Shown here: positions 51,690 to 63,258 of the stretch, piece after piece
Layout: each line of letters opens with the position of its first letter
How positions within the stretch are numbered: position 1 is the stretch's first letter
NCBI GenBank assembly: GCA_028289135.1
Contig: JAQGGW010000005.1
Coordinates: forward strand, 2,941 to 66,940
Source of the DNA: Candidatus Saccharimonadota bacterium
Lineage (GTDB): Bacteria; Patescibacteriota; Saccharimonadia; Saccharimonadales; JACDBH01
DNA length: 64,000 bases
Reading direction: 5' to 3'
The notes under the pieces: model-generated
What the model saw: only the letters and a program-made list of their open reading frames with translations
Database searches by the model: none
Told to the model about the DNA's origin: nothing
Program-made: the position numbers and the translations under genes

Positions 51690-52608
51690 TAGTATATATT
51701 ATAACATTAAAATAATTAGACGACAAACACCACGAATACCGGAGTACTCGTGGTTAATGTGTTCTCTTTGTGCGCGTAAAGGTGCAATGTCTCATTAGGA
51801 GGAGAACATATTGTCTCGGGCCATGCCCGCGCACTAGCTATGGTTTCGTATGCATACGGCCGTATGTACGATGTTTTGCATTATTGTTTGATAACAGCTC
51901 TTTATACTCTGTACGTCCCAAGGCTTAATGCGCCTGAATGAGGGATCTTTACACGTTCTTGCTAGGCAAAAAGGAGCGTATCATTTGTTTTCAGCAAACA
52001 GGTGCCGGGTAGGCGGTGGACCGCACCATGCTGCCATTCCATCCAGTGGCCGTTCCAGATTTCTCCAGATTGGCTTAGAAGGTCAAGCGAGCACCATGCG
52101 ACCGGACCGCATCGGCCACCCTCCGCAGTCTTCTTATAGCAAAAGACTTGGGTGGTTTCACATAATCATGATTTTTTGTCACCCGCACACCTGGTTTTGA
52201 TTATTGCCCGATGCGCATACCTCTCTCGAGGCGATCCTGCGGCTTTAGTCCTGCGTAGCGGCTTATTAAGCTACTAACCGGCATCTGCCTGCTGCTAAAA
52301 CATTTGTGATACGGCTATTTTGCGCTTTTGCTCTCCGATGCTCCCTCGATGTATTTCTGTATACACCTTCGGTCCGCTTCTCGAGCAAAAGCACAAACTA
52401 GCTCGTTCAAAATGTTTTAGACATACGTCTGCAAAAGACGTAAAAACGAAAATTTCTTAAATTATTTATATTTAAACTATTGTAGAAGAGAATACGTTTG
52501 TAGCTCCAGTGTAGCACAGATTATTGATTTTGTCAAGAGCAATCTTCTTTATAGTGCTTTTGTTTAGTCAACATTTATGGTTTATAGTGGTCATCCAAAG
52601 AGGTAATT
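51690..52608. other. Unassigned ~0.9-kb interval without a credible ORF; candidate large structured RNA or decayed sequence
   Basis: The only ORF of 60 aa or more (51928-52200) has non-protein-like composition. Many strong local helices, for example 51731-51756 and the 10-bp stem 52324-33/52383-92. Confidence 0.5.
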
Positions 52609-52611
52609 ATG
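52601..52611 (+). repeat. Left copy of an 11-nt direct repeat, AGGTAATTATG
   Basis: Identical 11-mer at 63248-63258. It overlaps the radC RBS and start codon. Confidence 0.3.
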
Positions 52612-53256
52612 AAGATATCAGAACTTGAGTTAATAGATCGCCCGCGCGAAAAACTTGCAGCAAAAGGTGTGAAGAATTTGTCGGACTTTGAGTTGCTCCA
52701 GTTAATTATCGGGAGCGGCGTATTTGGGGCAGATGTAACAGTTATTGCAAAAGAAATTAAAAAACTTCTAGATAAATATGGTTATTTAGTTACCCTAGAT
52801 CAGCTGAAGGATATTAAAGGCGTCAGCCTTGCAAGCGCAAGTAAAATTCTTGCTACTTTTGAACTAAGTCAGCGATATACAGTGCAAGATGGGGTTCAAG
52901 TTAAATCCGTTGAAGATGTTTTGCCGCTCTTAAGCTACATAAGAGATAAAAAGCAGGAATATTTTGTTTGCATAACACTCGATGGTGCAAATAGAGTTAT
53001 TGCAACTCGCACTATTACAATTGGCACACTTACTAATTCGCTAGTCCATCCGCGTGAAGTTTTTGCCGACGCTATAACTGATCGTGCGGCGAGCATAATA
53101 ATTGCCCATAATCATCCAGGTGGAAGCCTGAACCCAAGTGACGCAGATGACGATGTCACCATAAGCATAAAATCTGCAGGAAGCATTCTTGGCATTCAAC
53201 TTTTAGATCATCTTATAATTACGAAGCTTGACTACAAAAGCATTATAAATGGTTAA
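52609..53256 (+). CDS. radC: RadC-like JAB/MPN domain protein
   Basis: 215 aa with the HNHPGG JAMM motif and an N-terminal HhH-like region. Confidence 0.88.
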   Translation: MKISELELIDRPREKLAAKGVKNLSDFELLQLIIGSGVFGADVTVIAKEIKKLLDKYGYLVTLDQLKDIKGVSLASASKILATFELSQRYTVQDGVQVKSVEDVLPLLSYIRDKKQEYFVCITLDGANRVIATRTITIGTLTNSLVHPREVFADAITDRAASIIIAHNHPGGSLNPSDADDDVTISIKSAGSILGIQLLDHLIITKLDYKSIING

Positions 53257-53300
53257 ATCATAAGCTATATTACACTGTCAAAAAGTGTTATAATTAAAGC

Positions 53301-53495
53301 ATGAAAGCGCCATCCAGCACTCGTAGAAAGAAAGCAGTTTCTGCTGCTGTTTGGTCTGTTAAAGCAGAGGGCCTTCGGCCTACAAAGGCAGCCTCAAAGA
53401 GCCTTGGATCTTACGCATCAGGCAAAATCTCTGCCAAACAATTACGTGCGGAAACAGCACGCAACGTAAAGAACCTGCTTCGAACATCCAAATAG
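53301..53495 (+). CDS. VbhA-type antitoxin of the Fic toxin
   Basis: 64 aa containing SVKAEG, which fits the (S/T)xxxE(G/N) inhibitory motif. Its stop lies 1 nt before the fic ATG. Confidence 0.75.
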   Translation: MKAPSSTRRKKAVSAAVWSVKAEGLRPTKAASKSLGSYASGKISAKQLRAETARNVKNLLRTSK

Positions 53496-53496
53496 T

Positions 53497-54117
53497 ATGG
53501 CCTATATAATAAAGAACGATCCGTATATTGATCCGGAGTTTGGGGTGCTGCGCAACAAATTGGGTATTATTAGTCAGAAAACTCTCGATGAGGTGGAATT
53601 TACAATTACTTCAACTGAGATCGCGATTTTAGAAGAGAATATTATTAGGGGTGAATTCGATTTAAATCATTTAAAAGCAGTGCACAAAAAGATATTTGGT
53701 GATCTGTATGAGTGGGCTGGCGAAATACGGACAGTGGATATGGGCAAAGATGATACGCTTTTTGCTCATGCAGAATATATTGTGCCGAGTGCAAATGTAT
53801 TATTTGCAGAACTCAAAAATGAAAATTTTTTAAAGGGTCTTAAAAATCCAGAATTTGTAGAGCGGTTTGCGCACTATTATTCTGAAGTTAACATCCTGCA
53901 TCCTTTTCGGGAGGGCAATGGCCGAGCCCAGCGAGCGTTCTTTACACTTTTGGCAAGATATTCTGGCTGGCACGTAGCATGGGACCAAATGATTCAGGAC
54001 GACAATATAGCCGCTAGTGTTGCGGCATATAATGGCGACGAAGAGCCATTGGTTGAGATTTTACTTCCTTTGTTCGAATGGGTAGATGAGGACTATTGGA
54101 ATCTTGGCTTGGCATAG
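53497..54117 (+). CDS. fic: Fic-domain protein (AMPylase-type toxin)
   Basis: Intact HPFREGNGRAQR active-site motif; 206 aa. Confidence 0.9.
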   Translation: MAYIIKNDPYIDPEFGVLRNKLGIISQKTLDEVEFTITSTEIAILEENIIRGEFDLNHLKAVHKKIFGDLYEWAGEIRTVDMGKDDTLFAHAEYIVPSANVLFAELKNENFLKGLKNPEFVERFAHYYSEVNILHPFREGNGRAQRAFFTLLARYSGWHVAWDQMIQDDNIAASVAAYNGDEEPLVEILLPLFEWVDEDYWNLGLA

Positions 54118-54164: not shown

Positions 54165-56573
54165 ATGACCAAAAAAGAAGCTTATTCCCGGGTGGTGATT
54201 GATCGCAAGCTGCGTGAAGCTGGTTGGGATATTGAAGACGAAGAGCAAGTTGTCTTTGAAGATCATAGCACCGCCGGCAGAGCTGACTATGTATTAAAAG
54301 ATTCAAAGGGCATGCCCATAGCGCTTATTGAGGCAAAAGCACCTGAGATTGACCCATATAATGCTAAAAAACAGGCTCGTGATTACGTTGACCTTCAATA
54401 CAAACAGATTGATTTTATATATTTGGCCAACGATCAAAAAATATATTTTTGGGATCTGGGGCATGGCGATGCAGTGCCGTCAGACAGCGGCTTTTTCTCG
54501 CAAAGCGATTTAGAACGAAGACGCGCATCCGGCCGCGTAAATAATGTTAGCCCATTGCTCCAAGAAGCTATAGATACAGATTATTTTAAAGATATTACCG
54601 ATCAGATAAAACTTCGTGATTACCAACTAGACGCATGGAATGCTATTGCAACCAATTATGACGAAAAGCAAAAACGTGCCTTCTTGCTTGAGATGGCAAC
54701 CGGCACGGGCAAAACCGTTCTGGCAGCCTTAATTATTAGCAGATTCTTGCGTACTAATAATGCAAGCCGAGTACTATTTATTGTTGATAGACAGTCATTG
54801 GCAAACCAAACAAAAGGTACTTTTGAACAGCTTCTTCGTAATATTTCCACAGTTGGGGTTTATTGGGGCGGCAAAAGGCAAAACCTTACAGGCAGCAATG
54901 TAGTTATCGCAACTATTCAGTCCCTCGGGCTACATGGTAAAAAAGACTTTACGCCAGGGGCGTTTGATTTAATTATTCACGACGAAGCTCACAGAAGTAT
55001 TTATACGCCTGAGGCGAGGGCAGCGGTTGATCATTTTGTGGGTGCGACAAAAATCGGTCTTACGGCCACGCCTCGTGATTTCTTAAAAAATATTGATATT
55101 GAACAGCTTAGCAATGACGACCCACGTGCTTTAGAGCGCCGCATTCAACGCGATACATATCGTTACTTTGGCTGTGAAAATGGTGTGCCAACATTTCGAT
55201 ATACAATTCAGGACGGCTCAAAAGCTGGCTATTTAATTGAGCCGGTTTACCGTAAGGCAAACACCTCGCTTACGTACCAAGCCCTGAGTGATCAAGGCAT
55301 AACAAAGTTAGATGATGTAGAGCTAGAAGAAGGCACAAGCCTTAAGATTCGTGACTTAGAGCGAAAAGTATTCTTTCCGAAGCGCAATCGTGCAATGATG
55401 CAAGAGTTTTTAGACTACGCAGATTATGCGCCAAACGGTGAAGTAGGCAAGACTTTGATATTTGCAGTTTCGCAGAATCACGCACTTGCTTTAACAAAAA
55501 TTCTGAACGAATTAACGCCAGAATATAACGGCCGCTTTGCCGAAGTTATTACAAGCCGCGTGCATGGGGCACATGAGATAGCCAAAGATTTTGCAAACCT
55601 TAATAACAAACTGCCACGCGTTGCCGTTACTGTTGATATGCTTGCGACAGGCTTTGACGCGCCAGAAATTCTGAACCTTGTCATGGCACGTGCAATTTAT
55701 GACCCTACAACCTATCAACAAATGAAGGGCCGCGGTACACGGCTATGTCCAGAAGTTAAAAAGGAGCGCTTCGTAATTCATGACTTTGCCGGTGTCATTG
55801 ATTACTTTGCTGAAAAGCATGACTGGGATGTTCCGCTGAATGCTCCAGCTAATAAAGTTTACGGTACGGCTGTAGAATCAGTAGAAGAAACAATGCCTAT
55901 GATTCGTGGATCTGCAATTGGTGAGCCGATACAAGAGTATGTTCGTGCGAGTGATATACCTACAAGCAATATGCAAGATTTTATCGCTACACGTGACGTG
56001 GTGCAGTACGGTCTTGGCGAGGGCGATGTTGTTGACAGGAATATGTACCAGGACGAATGGACCAAAGCGGTTCATAACTATGTAAAAGAAAATCGAGAAA
56101 AAGTCGAGCAAGTTATTGACGATCCAGAGCAACTAGACGAGCTCATGGTAGATATTAACCGCGAACTTTTGGACCGACCAAAATATTACTTTAATGAAGA
56201 GACCTTACAGCAAAGTCACCGAGTTATAGCTGGCGTAAGAGATTTTTTCTTGGCGGCACTCGGTAAGACAAAATTACCAACACGTGATGAACAGCTAGCG
56301 GAGTTTAAGCAAGGCCTCGTGAATAAATTTGCCGACAGCGAAGGTGGCGCATCACAGCGTCGCACGCAAATGGTCAAATATTTGGCGGATCACCTTATGG
56401 GTGACCATAAACTTGTTTTAGCAATACGGCTGGAGGGTAACTTATCATTTTTAGCTAAACCAGAATTTGCACAGGCATATACAACCCGCGACTGGCTTGC
56501 AGAATTTAAAGACAAAGATGAACTTTTGGAATTAATTAGTGATATAGCTGTAAACCCGCTACTAAAGGTTTAA
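54165..56573 (+). CDS. hsdR: Type I restriction enzyme R subunit
   Basis: N-terminal PD-(D/E)xK-like GRADYVL...IALIEAKA, helicase motif I MATGTGKT and motif II HDEAH; 802 aa. Confidence 0.9.
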   Translation: MTKKEAYSRVVIDRKLREAGWDIEDEEQVVFEDHSTAGRADYVLKDSKGMPIALIEAKAPEIDPYNAKKQARDYVDLQYKQIDFIYLANDQKIYFWDLGHGDAVPSDSGFFSQSDLERRRASGRVNNVSPLLQEAIDTDYFKDITDQIKLRDYQLDAWNAIATNYDEKQKRAFLLEMATGTGKTVLAALIISRFLRTNNASRVLFIVDRQSLANQTKGTFEQLLRNISTVGVYWGGKRQNLTGSNVVIATIQSLGLHGKKDFTPGAFDLIIHDEAHRSIYTPEARAAVDHFVGATKIGLTATPRDFLKNIDIEQLSNDDPRALERRIQRDTYRYFGCENGVPTFRYTIQDGSKAGYLIEPVYRKANTSLTYQALSDQGITKLDDVELEEGTSLKIRDLERKVFFPKRNRAMMQEFLDYADYAPNGEVGKTLIFAVSQNHALALTKILNELTPEYNGRFAEVITSRVHGAHEIAKDFANLNNKLPRVAVTVDMLATGFDAPEILNLVMARAIYDPTTYQQMKGRGTRLCPEVKKERFVIHDFAGVIDYFAEKHDWDVPLNAPANKVYGTAVESVEETMPMIRGSAIGEPIQEYVRASDIPTSNMQDFIATRDVVQYGLGEGDVVDRNMYQDEWTKAVHNYVKENREKVEQVIDDPEQLDELMVDINRELLDRPKYYFNEETLQQSHRVIAGVRDFFLAALGKTKLPTRDEQLAEFKQGLVNKFADSEGGASQRRTQMVKYLADHLMGDHKLVLAIRLEGNLSFLAKPEFAQAYTTRDWLAEFKDKDELLELISDIAVNPLLKV

Positions 56574-56577
56574 AACA

Positions 56578-59043
56578 ATGGCAGAATTTAATACCGCAGA
56601 CCTACACAAACAAGTTGACCGTCTTATGGATATTTTCTTTGGGGCGGGTGTTGCAAGCCACCCAACAATTATTGAACAGATTAACTACCTGCTATTTATG
56701 CGCGCACTTTCTTATAAGGATGACGAATATCTTGCACTTGGCATTAATGATGCCGACACGATTGTTTTTGACGGTGAGCTTGAAAAATATCGCTGGGAAA
56801 ACTTACTGAGTCTAAATGCTGAAGCATTGTTTGTAGCGCTTGAAGATTGCTTTCGTAAAATTCCAGAAAGCACAAACAATAAAACGGTTCGTTTAGTTTT
56901 TCGAAATGCGCATATAAAACTGTTTGATAAGCCGAGTCTGCGGGTTGTAGTGCATGAAATTGATGCCTTTGCCAAACTGATGGACGAAGGAGAACATGAA
57001 GGTAAACACGATATTTTCGGTGATACATATGAATACTTGTTGAGTAAGCTTGCGCAAGCCGGTACTTCTGGCCAGTTCAGAACGCCGCGCCACATTATTG
57101 AGTTTCTTGTAGCAGTAGTCGCGCCTAAAAAAGGCGAAACTATTCTCGACCCAGCCGTCGGCACGGCTGGTTTTTTAGTGAAAGCTTTTGAATATTTGCG
57201 AAAAGAATACACATCGCCGGAACAGGCAGCCACGGGTGGTGCATTCGATAAGCTAAGCTCCAAAGAACATACATTTTTGTACGAACATACCTTTACTGGC
57301 TTTGACAGCGACGAAGACATGATTAAATTTGGCATGATGAACCTGTACCTTCACGGCTTGCAGAATGCGCATCTTGTGCGCCAAAACACACTTACCGACA
57401 CTGCTGGTAATCGCGATAAATACGATATTATTCTGGCCAACCCGCCTTTTAGTGGCAAGATTGACCGCGACAGCGTGGCTCAAGAGCTGCAAATGAATAC
57501 AGGAGCAACGGAAGTTCTATTTTTGCGTTATATGCTAGAGCATTTGACCGACAGTGGCCGTATGGGTGTGATAGTGCCAGAGGGCGTGATTTTTAATGGC
57601 TCAAGTGCACATGTTAAAATTCGCAAAATGCTTATTGAAAGTGGGCTTTGGTGTGTAGTGAGCCTCCCAGCGGGGGTCTTTAACCCATATGCGGGTGTTA
57701 AAACATCTATAGTTTTTATAGACAAATCCCTAAACAAAAATACTGAAATATTATTTGCCAAAGCTGAATCTGATGGTCTTAGTTTTGGTGCGCAGCGTCG
57801 CCCTATAATAAGAAACGATATACCGGGTATTTTGAGTGGTATAAAAAACCTTAAAGCGGGTATACCTTCAGAGTCTATCCATGTGCATAGTGTTAACAGA
57901 GATATGATTATAAATAGCAAAGACTATAACCTAAATGGTGATCGCTATAAAACTGTTGGCACTAACATGCTTTCGCAATGGACGCATACCGAGCTTAGTA
58001 ATGTGGCAAGAATTGAAAAGGGGAAATCATCTTCTACTAAAACTGAGCCTGGAGAGTACCCCCTAGTTCTTACAGCAAAAAATAGTAAAACTTCTAAAAA
58101 TTATGATTTTGAGGGCGAAGCAGTTCTTGTGCCACTTATCTCTGCGACAGGCCACGGTAAATCTGATATTAAAACAATTCATTATCAGAAGGGTAAGTTT
58201 GCTGCAGCAAATTTACTAGCAGTAGTTATGCCAGATCCTAATAAATGTGATGCAAAATATCTGCGTTTGTATTTAGATTATAAGAAAGATTACATCGCTA
58301 AAACTAAAATGTCTGGAGCAGCTAACAGGAGTATGAAGTTAGAGGATTTACACGATGTTCCTATCCCTCTACCGACTTTAGACATTCAGCATCAAATTGT
58401 ATCTGAAATTGATGGTTATCAAAAAATTATTGATGCTGCTAAAATAATTGTCAAATTTTATAAACCAGCTGTCAAAATGAATCCAGACTGGGATATCTCT
58501 AGCCTCGAGGATGTCTTTGATATGGTAAATGGCAGAGCTTTTAAAACATCGGAATGGTCGGATGCAGGAATTCCTATAATCCGGATCGCTAACCTAAACG
58601 GGGAATCCGCGAAGTATAACTATTACTCCGGTAATTATGACGACAAAACGCTTGTAGAACCTGGCCAACTGCTATTTTCTTGGTCTGGTACAAAAGGCAC
58701 ATCCTTCGGACCACATCTATGGCAGAGAAAAGCTGGGCTTTTAAATCAGCACATATTCAAGCTTAATCCAAAAGGAATTCCTATTGATTTGACGTTCGCC
58801 TACCACTATTTGAAAGCAATCGTGCCTGAAATAGAAGCAAAAGCACATGGATCAGGCGGCTTAGTACATATTACGAAGGGAGAACTTGGCAAGTTTAAAA
58901 TCCCTACTCCTGAGATTAGTGAACAAAGAAAAATAGTTGCCGCACTCGAAACAGAGCAGCAACTTATAAATGCAAACAAAACACTAATCGAAACATTCCA
59001 GCAAAAAATTAAAGATAAAATCGCAGAAATTTGGGGTGAATAA
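56578..59043 (+). CDS. hsdM: Fused Type I methyltransferase-specificity polypeptide (HsdM domain plus a complete two-TRD HsdS domain)
   Basis: N-terminal HsdM_N-like region, SAM motif ILDPAVGTAGFL and catalytic NPPF. Residues from about 470 to 821 contain two TRD-like blocks, each followed by a helical spacer (LDIQHQIVSEID..., ISEQRKIVAALE...). Confidence 0.85.
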   Translation: MAEFNTADLHKQVDRLMDIFFGAGVASHPTIIEQINYLLFMRALSYKDDEYLALGINDADTIVFDGELEKYRWENLLSLNAEALFVALEDCFRKIPESTNNKTVRLVFRNAHIKLFDKPSLRVVVHEIDAFAKLMDEGEHEGKHDIFGDTYEYLLSKLAQAGTSGQFRTPRHIIEFLVAVVAPKKGETILDPAVGTAGFLVKAFEYLRKEYTSPEQAATGGAFDKLSSKEHTFLYEHTFTGFDSDEDMIKFGMMNLYLHGLQNAHLVRQNTLTDTAGNRDKYDIILANPPFSGKIDRDSVAQELQMNTGATEVLFLRYMLEHLTDSGRMGVIVPEGVIFNGSSAHVKIRKMLIESGLWCVVSLPAGVFNPYAGVKTSIVFIDKSLNKNTEILFAKAESDGLSFGAQRRPIIRNDIPGILSGIKNLKAGIPSESIHVHSVNRDMIINSKDYNLNGDRYKTVGTNMLSQWTHTELSNVARIEKGKSSSTKTEPGEYPLVLTAKNSKTSKNYDFEGEAVLVPLISATGHGKSDIKTIHYQKGKFAAANLLAVVMPDPNKCDAKYLRLYLDYKKDYIAKTKMSGAANRSMKLEDLHDVPIPLPTLDIQHQIVSEIDGYQKIIDAAKIIVKFYKPAVKMNPDWDISSLEDVFDMVNGRAFKTSEWSDAGIPIIRIANLNGESAKYNYYSGNYDDKTLVEPGQLLFSWSGTKGTSFGPHLWQRKAGLLNQHIFKLNPKGIPIDLTFAYHYLKAIVPEIEAKAHGSGGLVHITKGELGKFKIPTPEISEQRKIVAALETEQQLINANKTLIETFQQKIKDKIAEIWGE

Positions 59044-59045
59044 AC

Positions 59046-60710
59046 ATGAGAATAACTAGAATTTGCATCAAAAATTTTCGATCTATAGAGGATGTAACTA
59101 TTGAAACAAATAATTTGAATGTACTCGTAGGTCAAAATAATCATGGCAAAACTAATTTTTTAACTGCGATTAATTGGTTTTTTTATGGCGGAAGTACTGA
59201 ACTTCACAAGAGAAAGGGTACTGGATCAGGTAACCCATATATTGAGATATGTTTCGACGATGTGCAGGGGGCATTGAAGAAGATGAAGAACGAGAAAAAT
59301 AGCAAAACCCTATCTTCAAAATTAGAAAATGTAGAAGAAGTTTCTCTGGTAAGGACTGTAGACGAGGAGGGTAAAACCAATCGAAGAATTGTTAATAGAG
59401 AAACTCGTGAACTTAGTGACCCAGGTACGGGATTTGACAAGGCCCTAAACGATTTCTTGCCTAACCTAGAGTTTGTACAAACTGAAAATAATTTACGAGA
59501 TATTTTAAAATACGGTAAAACTACTCAAATTGGTACCATGCTTTCGGGAGTCTTGAACGAGATACTGGCTAGCGGCGATCCAGCTTACAAAAGATTTGTA
59601 GATGAATTTTATACCTTATTTGGATCAAAAGAATCAAAAATTTACGATGAACTTAGAAAACTTGCTGAGAGCGTGGAGCTATATTTAAAAAAGCAGTTTC
59701 CTGAAACCACAAAAGTTGAGTTTGAGGTCAAGAATCCTGAACTTACAGATCTGTTCAAAAATTTTTCCGCGAAAGTAGATGATGGGGTTGTGACTGAAGC
59801 TTATGAAAAAGGCGATGGAATGCAACGAGCTTTAATGCTTGCGATAATTCAAACCTTTGCAGATTACAGGAGAAAAAATGCAGATATAAAGAACTTTATT
59901 TTTCTAATTGATGAGGGTGAGCTGCATCTTCACCCTGGTGCACAAAGGCATTTAAAGTCTGCACTTGAAGATCTTGCAAAGGATGGAGATCAGATATTTT
60001 TGACTACCCACTCCTCTGTGCTTATATCTGACGATAGCTCAGGTGACAAACAAAGTACTTTCAAAGTTGAAAAGTTCGAGGACGGAGTAACGAATATTGA
60101 TATACAAAATGAATACGCTAAGAAAAACATTATATACGAACTTCTTGGAGGTAGCCCTACCGATTTGCTAATGCCGTCGAATTTTATAATTGTTGAAGGC
60201 TCTTCAGAAGTTGATTTTTTAAGCAAGGTAATCGAACGACATTATCCAGAGAAAAAGTCCCTTAAGATCCTTCCCGCAAGAGGAGACTTTTATCAATCAG
60301 TACAACTCATGAATTCATTAGAGAAATTATTTACACCGCTGTCAGAGAGTATATATAAAGGTCATTTTCAAGTTCTTATTGATAAAAGTAAGCTCACAGA
60401 TGCGCAATTTCAAGAACTCCTTACTAAAGTCCCTAATTTCGATAAGGACTCCCAGTTTCATGAGCTTAGTCTTGGATCCCTTGAAGAATATTATCCTATC
60501 AAAAAAGCTGACCAATGTGCGGACTCATCAAATAGCAGATTATTTATGGAAAAATGGAAACTGTCATCAGCCGAAGTCTCCGCGCTTAGTTCTAAACAGA
60601 AGAGCCGTATGTCAAAAATTATTGGTGATAATATCACTAAAGATCAATTTGAAAACGAAATGCCATTAATGTTAAAGGTTTTAAATATGGCCTACGAGAA
60701 GAAATTATGA
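59046..60710 (+). CDS. ABC-type ATPase with a C-terminal Toprim/DUF4435-like region (OLD-family nuclease or fused PARIS AriA-AriB-like)
   Basis: MRITRICIKNFRSIED..., Walker A GQNNHGKTN, Walker B FLIDEGELHLHP, and a C-terminal IIVEGSSEVDFL motif. Confidence 0.8.
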   Translation: MRITRICIKNFRSIEDVTIETNNLNVLVGQNNHGKTNFLTAINWFFYGGSTELHKRKGTGSGNPYIEICFDDVQGALKKMKNEKNSKTLSSKLENVEEVSLVRTVDEEGKTNRRIVNRETRELSDPGTGFDKALNDFLPNLEFVQTENNLRDILKYGKTTQIGTMLSGVLNEILASGDPAYKRFVDEFYTLFGSKESKIYDELRKLAESVELYLKKQFPETTKVEFEVKNPELTDLFKNFSAKVDDGVVTEAYEKGDGMQRALMLAIIQTFADYRRKNADIKNFIFLIDEGELHLHPGAQRHLKSALEDLAKDGDQIFLTTHSSVLISDDSSGDKQSTFKVEKFEDGVTNIDIQNEYAKKNIIYELLGGSPTDLLMPSNFIIVEGSSEVDFLSKVIERHYPEKKSLKILPARGDFYQSVQLMNSLEKLFTPLSESIYKGHFQVLIDKSKLTDAQFQELLTKVPNFDKDSQFHELSLGSLEEYYPIKKADQCADSSNSRLFMEKWKLSSAEVSALSSKQKSRMSKIIGDNITKDQFENEMPLMLKVLNMAYEKKL

Positions 60711-61900
60711 ATGAAATTATATGTCCACACTGTAAAAAAGCCTTTAAAGTTGATGAGGCAGGCTTTGCTGATATTTTGAAGCAGGTGCGTGACCACAAGT
60801 TTGAGGAAGAGTTGCTTGAGCGCGTGCAAATGCTGGAGAGAGATAAAGAAAATGCCGTTAAGCTGGCGGAGGCTACTACTAAAAACGAACTTCAAGCCGA
60901 AGCGGCAAAAAAAGATGCGGAAGTCGCTGAGCTTAAGGCAAAACTTCAGGCTACAGAAACTGAAAAAAAGCTGGCTGTTACTGAAGCGGTAAATATAGTC
61001 GAAAAACAGCGCGATGAGCTTGTTGGGAAACTTCAAAGTAAAGATACGGAAAAACAGTTGCTTGAAGCTTCGCTGAAAGATAAGTATGAATCCGAACTTA
61101 AGTCTAAAGACGAAATGATTGCCTACTACAAAGACATGAAGGCTAAGCTTTCTACAAAAATGGTAGGCGAGACACTAGAACAGCACTGTGAGATAGAATT
61201 TAACAAACTGCGTGCAACGGCTTTTCAAAACGCATACTTCGAGAAAGACAATGATGCAAGCAGCGGCAGCAAGGGCGATTATATTTACAAAGAAACTGAT
61301 GAAAATGGTACCGAAATTATCTCTATCATGTTTGAGATGAAGAACGAAGGTGATGAAACGGCAACAAAAAAGAAAAATGAAGATTTCCTGCGTGAGCTAG
61401 ACAAAGATCGAAGCGAGAAAAATTGCGAGTTTGCAGTACTTGTATCTCTACTTGAAGCCGATAACGAACTATATAACTCGGGCATTGTTGATGTGTCGCA
61501 TAAACATTCGAAGATGTATGTCATACGGCCCCAATTCTTTATACCAATAATTACTTTACTTCGTAATGCCGCAATGACCTCAATGCAGTACAAATCCGAA
61601 CTTGCCCTAGTTAAATCACAGAATATTGATGTTACGAACTTCGAGGATCAGTTAAATGATTTTCGTGACTCTTTTGGTAAAAGCTACCGTCTGGCATCCG
61701 AGCGTTTTCAAGATGCAGTAGCGAGTATTGATAAGTCGATAGCTCAGCTCCAAAAAACTAAAGAGAACTTGCTGAAGTCAGAAGATCACTATCGAATCGC
61801 AAACAATAAGGCAGATGAGCTATCGGTCAAGAAACTTATACGCGGAAACCCTACTATGTCTGCTAGGTTTGCAAATTTAGATGATAAGAAGACTAGATAA
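60707..61900 (+). CDS. DUF2130 family protein (N-terminal zinc ribbon, coiled coil, conserved C-terminal domain)
   Basis: MNEIICPHCKKAFKVDEAGFADILKQVRD start and a long E/K-rich coiled coil. ATGA overlap with the upstream gene. Confidence 0.75.
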   Translation: MNEIICPHCKKAFKVDEAGFADILKQVRDHKFEEELLERVQMLERDKENAVKLAEATTKNELQAEAAKKDAEVAELKAKLQATETEKKLAVTEAVNIVEKQRDELVGKLQSKDTEKQLLEASLKDKYESELKSKDEMIAYYKDMKAKLSTKMVGETLEQHCEIEFNKLRATAFQNAYFEKDNDASSGSKGDYIYKETDENGTEIISIMFEMKNEGDETATKKKNEDFLRELDKDRSEKNCEFAVLVSLLEADNELYNSGIVDVSHKHSKMYVIRPQFFIPIITLLRNAAMTSMQYKSELALVKSQNIDVTNFEDQLNDFRDSFGKSYRLASERFQDAVASIDKSIAQLQKTKENLLKSEDHYRIANNKADELSVKKLIRGNPTMSARFANLDDKKTR

Positions 61901-61942
61901 GTCAGTTTGACAGTATACGGACTCTCATGATCTACTTAAGGC

Positions 61943-62779
61943 ATGTCACCGAAGTTAATTTCTATATTTTTGCCTGATGGTAACCCAAATGCTTTAAAGA
62001 TTGCAGAAATATCGAACCGTAATATACGGGCACTTTTAATTCCTCGCCCAAAACTTACAGATGCAATAGCAAGAGTTGAGCTAAATCAGCCCGCGCTTTA
62101 TGTGCTTACGGATAGAGATGCAAGTGAAATTTATATCGGTGAATGCGAAAACTTTTTGCACAGAGTAAAATCACATGACCAAAAGAAAGATTTTTGGGAT
62201 GTTGCATTAGTGTTTGTAGCCAAAGACAGTTCGCTTGAAAAAGGGGATGTAAAATATCTAGAATCCTTAGCCGTAGAAATAGCAAAGGACGCTGAACGTA
62301 CTAAAGTTACTAATCTCACTGTACCGGCACGTAATAATTTACATGAATTTAAAGCTCAAACTATATTAGAATTTTTTGACGATCTCAAGCTACTTATTTC
62401 TGCACTCGGTTATCCTGTGTTTGACAAAATAAAAATTGAAGAAAAAAATGAATCTGAATTTTGGTATTGTGATAGACGTCTCACGAAGGCTAAAGCTATT
62501 TATGACGAAAACGGTTTCACGGTGATTAAGGGCTCGATTATAGATGCTACTGTCCAGCCATCATTATTAAAGTATTATCCATATGCTGTCAAAGAGCGAG
62601 AAGAACTTATATCACAAAAGGCATCCCTGAATCACGATAAAGTTTCATATACACTAAAAGAGAATATTACTTTCAGCAGCGCAAATAAGGCAGGCGGCTT
62701 TGTTGTCGGTGCCAATATAAATGCTTGGACAAACTGGAAAAATAAGGCCGGTAAAACAATGGACGAGGTTTTGCGTTAA
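61943..62779 (+). CDS. GIY-YIG-like nuclease family protein with a DUF4357-like C-terminal domain
   Basis: ALYVLTD....EIYIGECENFLHRVKSH...KDFWD...VF pattern. The C-terminus FTVIKGS...S.ANKAGGFV.G resembles DUF4357. Confidence 0.7.
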   Translation: MSPKLISIFLPDGNPNALKIAEISNRNIRALLIPRPKLTDAIARVELNQPALYVLTDRDASEIYIGECENFLHRVKSHDQKKDFWDVALVFVAKDSSLEKGDVKYLESLAVEIAKDAERTKVTNLTVPARNNLHEFKAQTILEFFDDLKLLISALGYPVFDKIKIEEKNESEFWYCDRRLTKAKAIYDENGFTVIKGSIIDATVQPSLLKYYPYAVKEREELISQKASLNHDKVSYTLKENITFSSANKAGGFVVGANINAWTNWKNKAGKTMDEVLR

Positions 62780-62783
62780 AATT

Positions 62784-63200
62784 ATGGAAGAAAATGTAAA
62801 GAAAAACTTCTGGCTCTATACTTTAGCTTTAAGCGATGGAAAATATTATGTGGGTATTACTGCGCAACGAAACCCATACGTACGTATCAATCAACATGGA
62901 AAATTTGCGAGCGCTGCATGGACTCATAAACATAAACCGCTAAAAGAACCACTTATTGAACTTAAAAAACTCGGATATATGACATATGTAGACGCCAAAA
63001 AGTTAGAGTCTGAGACGATGATGGAGTATGTGAAAAAATATGGGCAAAATAATGTACGTGGTGGTAACGTGAACTTTACTGAAGATTCTATAAAAATAGG
63101 TAACAGATTTTGGCTAAAAGATGATTTTAGTACAACAATATTAGTAACAACCCTTTGTTTAATGATTATATTTTTGAGCATAGCTTACCAGCTAAAATGA
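62784..63200 (+). CDS. Small GIY-YIG domain protein with a C-terminal TM helix
   Basis: FWLYTLALSDGKYYVGITAQ...R..QH and VRGG motifs. The C-terminus ILVTTLCLMIIFLSIAY is hydrophobic. The ATG at 62784 lies 4 nt after the upstream stop; the track ORF starts earlier, inside the upstream gene. Confidence 0.65.
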   Translation: MEENVKKNFWLYTLALSDGKYYVGITAQRNPYVRINQHGKFASAAWTHKHKPLKEPLIELKKLGYMTYVDAKKLESETMMEYVKKYGQNNVRGGNVNFTEDSIKIGNRFWLKDDFSTTILVTTLCLMIIFLSIAYQLK

Positions 63201-63247
63201 ACCCCTACCTAGACATAGAAGGCGTAATATGTCGAATGAACTATAAA

Positions 63248-63258
63248 AGGTAATTATG
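63248..63258 (+). repeat. Right copy of the 11-nt direct repeat AGGTAATTATG
   Basis: Identical to 52601-52611. It lies in the intergenic region after the last island gene. Confidence 0.3.

Follow-up and report, generated by a model that had tools for sequence, protein, structure and literature searches.

The three genes at positions 60707 to 63200 of a 64,000-nucleotide (nt) stretch of Candidatus Saccharimonadota DNA (assembly GCA_028289135.1, contig JAQGGW010000005.1; the whole stretch is referred to here as the window) encode a DUF2130 protein, a GIY-YIG/DUF4357 protein and a small GIY-YIG protein with a C-terminal tail anchor, and are preceded in a type I restriction-modification (R-M) operon by the gene of an OLD-family ATP-binding cassette (ABC) ATPase. 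These genes are probably separate add-ons to the operon, namely an OLD-ATPase and DUF2130 pair followed by two independent GIY-YIG nucleases, and not the parts of one complex. The recurrent unit is an ABC/OLD-type ATPase together with DUF2130, frequently embedded in R-M operons, because OLD and ABC ATPases repeatedly adjoin DUF2130 in metagenome loci, in Citrobacter, in E. coli and on the lactococcal plasmid pNP40. The three proteins are identical to entries JWO47_584, JWO47_585 and JWO47_586. The features are listed below (aa, amino acids; AF2, AlphaFold2; pLDDT, predicted local distance difference test score).

59046-60710, plus strand: OLD-family ABC ATPase, 554 aa (Pfam AAA_15 2e-31, AAA_21 2e-16)
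60707-61900, plus strand: DUF2130 protein, 397 aa, translationally coupled to the ATPase gene by an ATGA overlap (PF09903, E 7.6e-87)
60707-60796, plus strand: N-terminal beta-hairpin of DUF2130 with a single CPHC knuckle (C6, H8 and C9 invariant in alignment A5; model strands 2-5 and 12-15)
60797-61156, plus strand: E/K-rich coiled coil of about 120 aa (single helix 31-150, pLDDT 80-88; 21 E, 21 K and no Pro in 121 aa)
61169-61456, plus strand: PD-(D/E)XK core of DUF2130 (D191 at 61277-61279, E210-M-K212 at 61334-61342)
61943-62779, plus strand: GIY-YIG/DUF4357 predicted nuclease, 278 aa, the PADLOC candidate PDC-S14 (PDC-S14 E 2.3e-81; phrog_12629 E 8e-43; AF2 pLDDT 92)
62084-62332, plus strand: GIY-YIG catalytic domain of PDC-S14 (Y53, Y64, R74, H78, E107, N124)
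62450-62776, plus strand: C-terminal domain of PDC-S14, including DUF4357 (R219, W262, W265, T272 and R278 invariant)
62784-63200, plus strand: small GIY-YIG protein with C-terminal tail anchor, 138 aa (Pfam GIY-YIG 26.8 bits, cut-off 22.6, E 6.5e-6)
63138-63194, plus strand: predicted transmembrane helix of the small GIY-YIG protein, aa 119-137, ILVTTLCLMIIFLSIAYQL (19-residue Kyte-Doolittle mean 2.27; the other two proteins reach at most 1.11)

An earlier note on this DNA (the original prediction) had the layout right: the start codon of DUF2130 and the stop codon of the ATPase gene share an ATGA (60707-60710), the 278-aa open reading frame (ORF) follows after 42 nt and the 138-aa ORF after another 4 nt. 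Its domain calls for all three ORFs were also upheld by Pfam, in which the GIY-YIG match of the 278-aa protein is weak and is backed by alignment and structure, and its C-terminal transmembrane helix in the 138-aa protein agrees with both hydropathy and the conserved hydrophobic C-terminus. The catalytic residues which it proposed to check proved conserved in the family alignments of both GIY-YIG proteins. Judged by such conserved residues, both are credible as active nucleases and DUF2130 would be a third, of the PD-(D/E)XK type. All three families were found near R-M or defence genes in other genomes, as had been stated.

Distribution of the three genes

The original prediction proposed that the three genes form one effector module. 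Co-occurrence was examined from each gene, by a genome scan for PDC-S14 (80 genome loci and three contigs of close relatives, 83 in all, searched with family hidden Markov models (HMMs) for DUF2130 and the mini GIY-YIG), a metagenome scan for DUF2130 and contig look-ups for the mini GIY-YIG. None of the 83 PDC-S14 loci held DUF2130 or a mini GIY-YIG gene by the family HMMs. Among 83 DUF2130 loci, PDC-S14 was present only as a remnant at one (L101) and a mini GIY-YIG gene lay alongside at only two (L097 and L102; mini GIY-YIG beside DUF2130, 36-39% identical). No second locus with all three genes was found among the 83 PDC-S14 loci, the 83 DUF2130 loci and 10 distinct loci of the mini GIY-YIG family, three of which are inside the DUF2130 set. 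Co-occurrence elsewhere, on which the proposal had been staked, was thus essentially absent.

That DUF2130, the GIY-YIG/DUF4357 protein and the membrane-anchored GIY-YIG protein work as one three-protein effector module at the operon end is, on these results, highly improbable. The tight same-strand packing in the window, with gaps of 42 and 4 nt, and the similarly low GC content of two of the three genes speak for such a module, as do the PDC-S14 remnant which follows DUF2130 by 1.1 kb at L101 and the mini GIY-YIG genes beside DUF2130 at L097 and L102. Set against these are the lack of a second complete locus and of either partner at any PDC-S14 locus, the PDC-S14 genes which directly follow HsdM-S or an ATPase without DUF2130 (L014 and L015), the C5 DNA methyltransferase which precedes the nearest mini GIY-YIG homologue, and the more than 80 contexts in which DUF2130 occurs without either partner. 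The trio as one module was rejected because co-occurrence of all three was seen from no gene's side, and the pairwise links at L097, L101 and L102 are of the kind expected among defence-island genes.

The PDC-S14 remnant at L101 (11421-11763) is internally deleted, with aa 1-55 and 242-278 only, and lies 1.1 kb downstream of DUF2130. At the same locus DUF2130 overlaps an HsdR gene by 4 nt, and Fic remnants lie further on.

The DUF2130 protein

The match of DUF2130 to PF09903 reached 291 bits (cut-off 26.7) over profile positions 3-253 of 255, and no PADLOC, NCBIfam or meaningful PHROG match was obtained. DUF2130 belongs to the PD-(D/E)XK nucleases by motif, by element order and by published clan assignment: D191, E210 and K212 are invariant in 25 DUF2130 sequences (alignment A5), the model has the alpha-beta-beta-beta-alpha-beta order which PD-(D/E)XK expects, and the family is listed as PD-(D/E)XK (PMC3424549). 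The top Foldseek match of the model was the restriction enzyme BstEII (probability 0.66), a weak match from a low-confidence model (pLDDT 62). A profile search against PDB sequences returned coiled-coil noise only, the C-terminal 276 aa gave no match to RmuC (PF02646) in Pfam even at E<=10, and no transmembrane helix was predicted (peak 19-residue hydropathy 1.11, with an N-terminus free of any hydrophobic segment).

Two details of the original prediction required revision. The CPHC zinc ribbon which it described is present as one CxxC knuckle, and a complete four-ligand ribbon was not recognised, only half of the Zn_ribbon_4 profile being matched (E 0.0046, below the cut-off); the further invariant residues H160, C161 and C240 are distant in sequence from this single knuckle. 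The coiled coil, which it had put at about 150 aa, measures about 120 aa. Its length varies within the family through repeat-like insertions of an AELKAKLQA..TEKKLAVTEAV unit (alignment A5; P0189, P0204, P0232 and others), and the window version is among the shortest.

More than 8000 homologues of DUF2130 were found, of which the best 120 are 63-84% identical to it. The window protein is 55-65% identical to plasmid proteins of Bradyrhizobium, Ralstonia, Paraburkholderia, Citrobacter, Enterobacter, Arthrobacter and Lactococcus. Over the range from Saccharibacteria to plasmids of Proteobacteria, Firmicutes and Actinobacteria, identity within DUF2130 is 55-84%. No match was found in 50,697 phage records, and a literature search returned no paper tying DUF2130 or COG4487 to defence.

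Pairing of DUF2130 with ATPases

The ATPase encoded upstream of DUF2130 in the window matched the PADLOC models Old (1.2e-63), AriA (7e-37) and many of GajA (to 1e-21), while Pfam and PADLOC revealed neither a GajB nor an AriB homologue in the operon. It is 45% identical to the ATPase upstream of DUF2130 at L124 and 25% identical (E 2e-20) to the "ATP-dependent endonuclease" which precedes DUF2130 in Citrobacter, whose DUF2130 protein shares 61% identity with that of the window. The nuclease within the ATPase itself may be degenerate. Its C-terminal third (60048-60710) has a conserved Glu motif, IIVEGSSE, after which no clear DxD motif was seen.

For DUF2130, 80 metagenome loci and four other contexts were surveyed and their neighbours clustered. 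Upstream genes of defence type were common: by our own count they made up about 40% of 51 same-strand upstream neighbours, and all ten of the tightly linked upstream genes which were examined individually were of this type. Three of the ten encode AAA_13 ATPases (PADLOC PDC-S06); the products of the others are one AAA_21/SMC_N ATPase, one STAND-like AAA_16 protein, one type IIG enzyme, GmrSD_N, DUF2779, one HsdR of type I and one Schlafen/AlbA_2 protein. The AAA_13 ATPase genes end 2, 4 and 32 nt upstream of DUF2130 (L160, L122 and L156) and the AAA_21/SMC_N ATPase gene overlaps it by 4 nt (L102), while an OLD ATPase lies upstream with a 50-nt gap at L124, OLD-like ATPases follow DUF2130 directly at L126 and L169, and a KAP NTPase is encoded upstream at L001. 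The original prediction had overlooked that this class of ATPase is a recurrent partner of DUF2130.

The pair was also found on annotated mobile elements. A Citrobacter plasmid (L224) and a chromosomal island of E. coli H5/H6 (L229) share the order regulator, Snf2 helicase, DUF4391, OLD "ATP-dependent nuclease", DUF2130, type III methyltransferase and type III endonuclease, with 2 nt between OLD and DUF2130; the island is integrative and in E. coli is located at tRNA-Thr. The full OLD-DUF2130 pair, which in E. coli H5 has the locus tags RG47_RS11405-11410, occurred in 2 of 5426 complete E. coli genomes. The additional genes of this operon encode a WYL/HTH regulator and an HKD+Snf2 helicase (PADLOC C3a139). 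On Lactococcus lactis pNP40 (L230, NC_010901.1, 11074-14944) DUF2130 is followed by a TrlF-like AAA ATPase, near the LlaJI R-M and Abi genes, and this pair is not among the systems reported from a lactococcal plasmidome screen (PMC11381338). As far as the defence libraries and literature that we consulted show, the pairing of an OLD ATPase with DUF2130 is undescribed.

The main rival explanation holds that DUF2130, and perhaps the mini GIY-YIG protein too, is a housekeeping recombination or repair nuclease like RmuC, which flanks a hotspot for defence cassettes (R-M and OLD upstream, PDC-S14 downstream) and is no defence component itself. Its conservation at 55-84% identity over hundreds of clusters in several phyla would fit such a role, as would the housekeeping-like contexts of the gene at L004 (glycoside hydrolases, CorA), at L005-L008 (at L005 DUF348 and NUDIX near EF-Tu) and in Mitsuaria (alanine racemase, FBPase). 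The GC and GC3 (third codon position) values of DUF2130 (0.40/0.39) lie between those of the cargo genes (0.34-0.37/0.29-0.31) and those of the native downstream gene (0.47/0.53), and an identical pair of mini GIY-YIG and DUF2164 genes is preceded by different cargo on different contigs, as a hotspot flank predicts. However, no conserved synteny was found on either side of DUF2130, the largest neighbour cluster covering 5 of 82 loci, and hence no second hotspot flank could be recognised; the gene is carried by conjugative or mobilizable plasmids and by the E. coli tRNA-Thr integrative island, which is present in so few genomes; and in unrelated lineages it overlaps upstream defence ATPase or restriction enzyme genes by 4 nt or follows them with gaps of <=5 nt. 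Because these overlaps and short gaps recur in unrelated lineages, DUF2130 appears to be co-expressed with defence genes rather than adjacent to them by accident, and we regard the housekeeping explanation as rather unlikely.

The possibility that DUF2130 is a core gene of conserved synteny, bordered by a single hotspot flank, was also considered and was rejected when the neighbour clustering gave no conserved flank. The NUDIX gene which follows DUF2130 at L005 has no homology to the winged helix-turn-helix gene found downstream in the window. A conserved small partner downstream of DUF2130 or of the mini GIY-YIG gene was rejected too, DUF2164 being present only with the mini GIY-YIG protein P0244 and in no DUF2130 locus.

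The GIY-YIG/DUF4357 protein

The 278-aa protein is already catalogued as the PADLOC candidate PDC-S14, which the original prediction had missed, and it matched the PDC-S14 HMM over its full length (residues 1-276 on profile positions 13-294 of 301). By residues and by fold it belongs to the GIY-YIG superfamily. In an alignment of 30 family sequences Y53, Y64, H78, E107 and N124 are invariant and R74 is nearly so, and the N-terminal half of the AF2 model resembles the GIY-YIG domain of UvrC (1yd6; Foldseek probability 0.82, TM-score 0.58, root mean square deviation 2.8) and also viral GIY-YIG structures. The Pfam GIY-YIG match (E 8e-4, 20.1 bits) falls below the cut-off of 22.6. DUF4357 (PF14267) was matched marginally, with 39.7 bits for the C-terminal fragment against a cut-off of 38.4 and 37.3 bits (E 2.7e-9) for the whole protein. 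This domain, which is also fused to GmrSD, T5orf172 and McrB homologues (PMC4619093, PMC11090510), is presumably a nucleic-acid recognition domain. A literature search gave no functional paper on PDC-S14, only its status as a PADLOC candidate.

In the loci examined, PDC-S14 habitually accompanies type I R-M genes, and it does so in several phyla. A Pfam census of its neighbours was led by N6_Mtase (13), ResIII (9), HsdM_N (9) and Methylase_S (8), followed by AAA_21 (4) and Fic (4). A 63%-identical homologue stands straight after HsdR and HsdM-S at L014, as in the window but without an ATPase or DUF2130 between, a 60%-identical one directly follows type III R-M genes and an AAA_15/21 ATPase at L015, and a type I R-M operon context was also seen at L013. 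On plasmids the gene is found between hsdS and hsdR (Acinetobacter), after hsdM (Salinibacter) and beside hsdR/hsdM (Bacteroides). Relatives of both PDC-S14 and the mini GIY-YIG protein occur in viral contigs, and Fic genes adjoin PDC-S14 homologues at L032, L066 and L093.

The small tail-anchored GIY-YIG protein

A longer in-frame start exists at 62721 for the small GIY-YIG gene; its homologues begin at the equivalent of 62784. The 138-aa protein is a member of the GIY-YIG superfamily, with Y12, Y22, G24, R34, H38, W46, E75, R92 and G93 invariant in 28 aligned members, and the nearest solved relative is the UPF0213 protein EF2693 (1ywl, E 1.2e-4). The hydrophobic C-terminus was retained in all family members inspected. 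While a word-based search gave only two relatives, a profile search gave 4395 at E<=1e-3 and 429 clusters at E<=1e-10, and on account of these numbers the tail-anchored GIY-YIG proteins are taken as a real family, sizeable and uncharacterised, with variable contexts. The membrane-anchored GIY-YIG, which the original prediction had regarded as an unusual effector design, is accordingly no one-off, being represented by those 429 cluster representatives.

A further explanation, which we consider unlikely, is that the small GIY-YIG protein is an orphan or mobile endonuclease, either a selfish gene of homing type or one half of a small R-M pair, its nuclease, which arrived by chance and brings the host no benefit. 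A C5 DNA methyltransferase gene ends 13 nt before its closest homologue (69% identity), an N6_N4 methylase and DUF6996/7 precede another member of the family, relatives of the GIY domain are frequent in metagenome-assembled genomes (MAGs) of giant viruses, and the gene has the lowest GC of the island, all of which would suit a mobile gene. It has, however, no DNA-binding extension of the type typical of homing GIY-YIG enzymes, a conserved membrane anchor being present instead; in the window no methyltransferase of its own lies adjacent; no PHROG match was found; and all catalytic positions are conserved in the 28 aligned members.

The giant-virus relatives (L176-L207) correspond to the catalytic domain only, residues ~10-95. 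The mini GIY-YIG protein P0244 recurs unchanged, next to a DUF2164 gene, at L235-L238, where the pair is preceded either by an N6_N4 methylase and DUF6996/6997 or by DUF4268. This pair with differing upstream cargo resembles cassette exchange at a hotspot.

Proposed roles

Under the reading favoured here, that of separate add-ons, DUF2130 would be a dimer-type coiled-coil PD-(D/E)XK nuclease, and the OLD-type ABC ATPase whose gene overlaps it would most likely be its functional partner. The ATPase may act as a sensor or motor which detects or tracks either foreign DNA or an anti-restriction factor, with DUF2130 as the effector which cuts DNA. Gabija, PARIS, Septu and Lamassu would be the analogues of such a division of labour, and ShdA that of the effector architecture. 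Given its location inside R-M operons, the pair may plausibly support restriction or extend it. PDC-S14 may be self-contained, its GIY-YIG domain cutting DNA and its DUF4357 domain providing target recognition, and could either be modification-dependent, in the manner of type IV enzymes, or provide a second line of defence tied to R-M. The small GIY-YIG protein would be a tail-anchored nuclease whose catalytic domain is held at the cytoplasmic face of the membrane.

A broader proposal is put forward only tentatively, and we consider it possible though doubtful. In it, the OLD/ABC ATPase and DUF2130 constitute an immune module of two genes which is absent from the catalogues, conserved to an exceptional degree and spread by horizontal transfer. 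The module would be plugged into R-M operons, those of type I in Saccharibacteria and of type III in E. coli and Citrobacter, and serve there as a guardian or second-line nuclease, DUF2130 being a universal effector recruited by different ATPase sensors (OLD, AAA_13/PDC-S06, SMC-like, TrlF-like, KAP and STAND).

Several observations weigh against these interpretations. The DUF2130 model is poor and the fold assignment rests on motif, secondary structure and literature, its very high conservation is unusual in defence genes, an ABC-type ATPase is adjacent at only about 12% of DUF2130 loci, and the housekeeping-like contexts described above exist. Genes at the loci were called by a crude longest-ORF method. 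The Toprim domain of the window ATPase is at best degenerate, OLD-like_TOPRIM being matched below threshold (E 0.005 on the C-terminal fragment), and the C-terminal domain of PDC-S14, with DUF4357, had no structural match in PDB or BFVD. Weak pairwise links between members of the trio do exist (L097, L101 and L102). No experiment ties any of the three families to defence, PDC-S14 having only candidate status in PADLOC and DUF2130 no PADLOC model.

As a dedicated module the trio would have been a new multi-nuclease effector, and that claim can be dropped. The most worthwhile lead of the locus is the OLD and DUF2130 pair, which is directly testable in E. coli. DUF2130 is a predicted nuclease family absent from PADLOC 2.0 which keeps about 60% identity from candidate phyla radiation bacteria to enterobacterial plasmids, and it repeatedly stands beside defence ATPases inside R-M operons, with examples in a tractable island of E. 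coli and on pNP40, a classic plasmid of phage resistance; the ATPase and nuclease defence systems could gain a widespread class of effector from it. The occurrence of PDC-S14 as an R-M passenger across phyla bears on the role of accessory genes linked to R-M, and the tail-anchored GIY-YIG proteins are documented here as a sizeable, unstudied family.

Setting within a low-GC defence island

All genes between the RadC start (52609) and the end of the small GIY-YIG gene (63200) are on the plus strand, separated by short gaps or overlapping, in the order RadC, VbhA antitoxin, Fic toxin, HsdR, HsdM-HsdS fusion, OLD/AriA/GajA-like ABC ATPase, DUF2130, GIY-YIG/DUF4357 and small GIY-YIG. The features upstream of the ATPase are as follows.

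52609-54117, plus strand: RadC-like JAB protein, then VbhA antitoxin and Fic toxin (PADLOC PDC-S04), the start of the low-GC island (Pfam and PADLOC)
54165-59043, plus strand: type I R-M genes, an EcoAI-like HsdR (54165-56573) and an HsdM-HsdS fusion (56578-59043), the head of the operon (Pfam, PADLOC and NCBIfam)

The island genes have a GC content of 0.34-0.43 (the short VbhA gene 0.48), compared with 0.46 at positions 1-51000 and 0.47 (GC3 0.53) in the gene downstream of 63311. By this difference from both flanks, the defence island whose 3' end is seen here is compositionally foreign. The trio with its ATPase forms the tail of this ~10.6-kb low-GC island, comprising RadC, VbhA/Fic, type I R-M, the OLD ATPase and the three predicted nucleases. 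The original prediction had called the stretch of the three genes the most AT-rich part of the island, which is true of the ATPase (GC 0.36), PDC-S14 (0.37) and mini GIY-YIG (0.34) genes and not of DUF2130 (0.40).

The VbhA antitoxin and Fic toxin pair (53301-54117; PDC-S04, E 8e-74) lies directly upstream of the type I R-M genes, and HsdM and HsdS form a single fused protein of 821 aa, a fusion which is also present beside PDC-S14 at L014. At the left edge of the island about 900 bp (51690-52608) are without a convincing ORF and contain a GC-richer core at ~51.9-52.4 kb; a search of this gap for an attachment site found no tRNA or tmRNA with ARAGORN and no Rfam match even at E<=1. A 14-nt near-repeat, AA(G/A)AGGTAATTATG, occurs at 52598-52611, at the RadC start, and at 63245-63258, in the spacer after the small GIY-YIG gene. 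The two copies are 10,647 bp apart, sit roughly at both island borders and are the sole border repeat found; they may be due to chance, 19 comparable repeat families being present within 13 kb.

Comparison with known systems

The known protein closest to DUF2130 in architecture is ShdA of the Pseudomonas Shield system, a membrane-bound coiled-coil RmuC nuclease which defends alone and degrades DNA in vitro (PMC10270631) and has been noted inside type I R-M loci (PMC11090510). Both ShdA/RmuC and DUF2130 combine a long coiled coil with a PD-(D/E)XK domain and occur in defence islands and type I R-M loci, ShdA having optional accessory partners. In contrast to ShdA, DUF2130 has no RmuC domain (PF02646), no PADLOC match and no transmembrane helix; features of its own are the CPHC knuckle at the N-terminus and a second helical region at the C-terminus. 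DUF2130 occurs in many phyla, whereas Shield has been reported from Pseudomonas only.

As in the window, an ABC ATPase of OLD/AriA/GajA type is tightly coupled to a nuclease gene in Gabija (GajA/GajB), PARIS (AriA/AriB), Septu (PtuA/PtuB) and P2 Old. The partner in the window is a coiled-coil PD-(D/E)XK protein, as opposed to a UvrD-type helicase in Gabija, a DUF4435 Toprim protein in PARIS and an HNH protein in Septu. PrrC and PARIS act as guardians of R-M (PMC12707154), and the embedding of the ATPase-DUF2130 pair in R-M loci is consistent with this guardian idea.

The 278-aa protein has the two-domain layout and conserved residues of PADLOC PDC-S14, itself a computational candidate, with no structural difference. 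With PrrC and RloC it shares its place in type I loci: like prrC in EcoprrI, PDC-S14 homologues lie between or after hsdM, hsdS and hsdR, in several phyla. It is a predicted GIY-YIG DNA nuclease, while PrrC and RloC are anticodon nucleases regulated by an ABC ATPase. Type IV restriction enzymes couple a reader domain for modified bases (SRA, EVE, YTH or winged helix) to a nuclease, and any likeness of PDC-S14 to these would be indirect, through the reported fusions of DUF4357 to GmrSD and McrB (PMC4619093, PMC11090510). The catalytic domain of the mini GIY-YIG protein matches EF2693 (1ywl) of the UPF0213/YhbQ-Slx1 branch and, weakly, SLX1; unlike the members of that branch, it carries a conserved tail anchor and a W..T and NVRGG signature.

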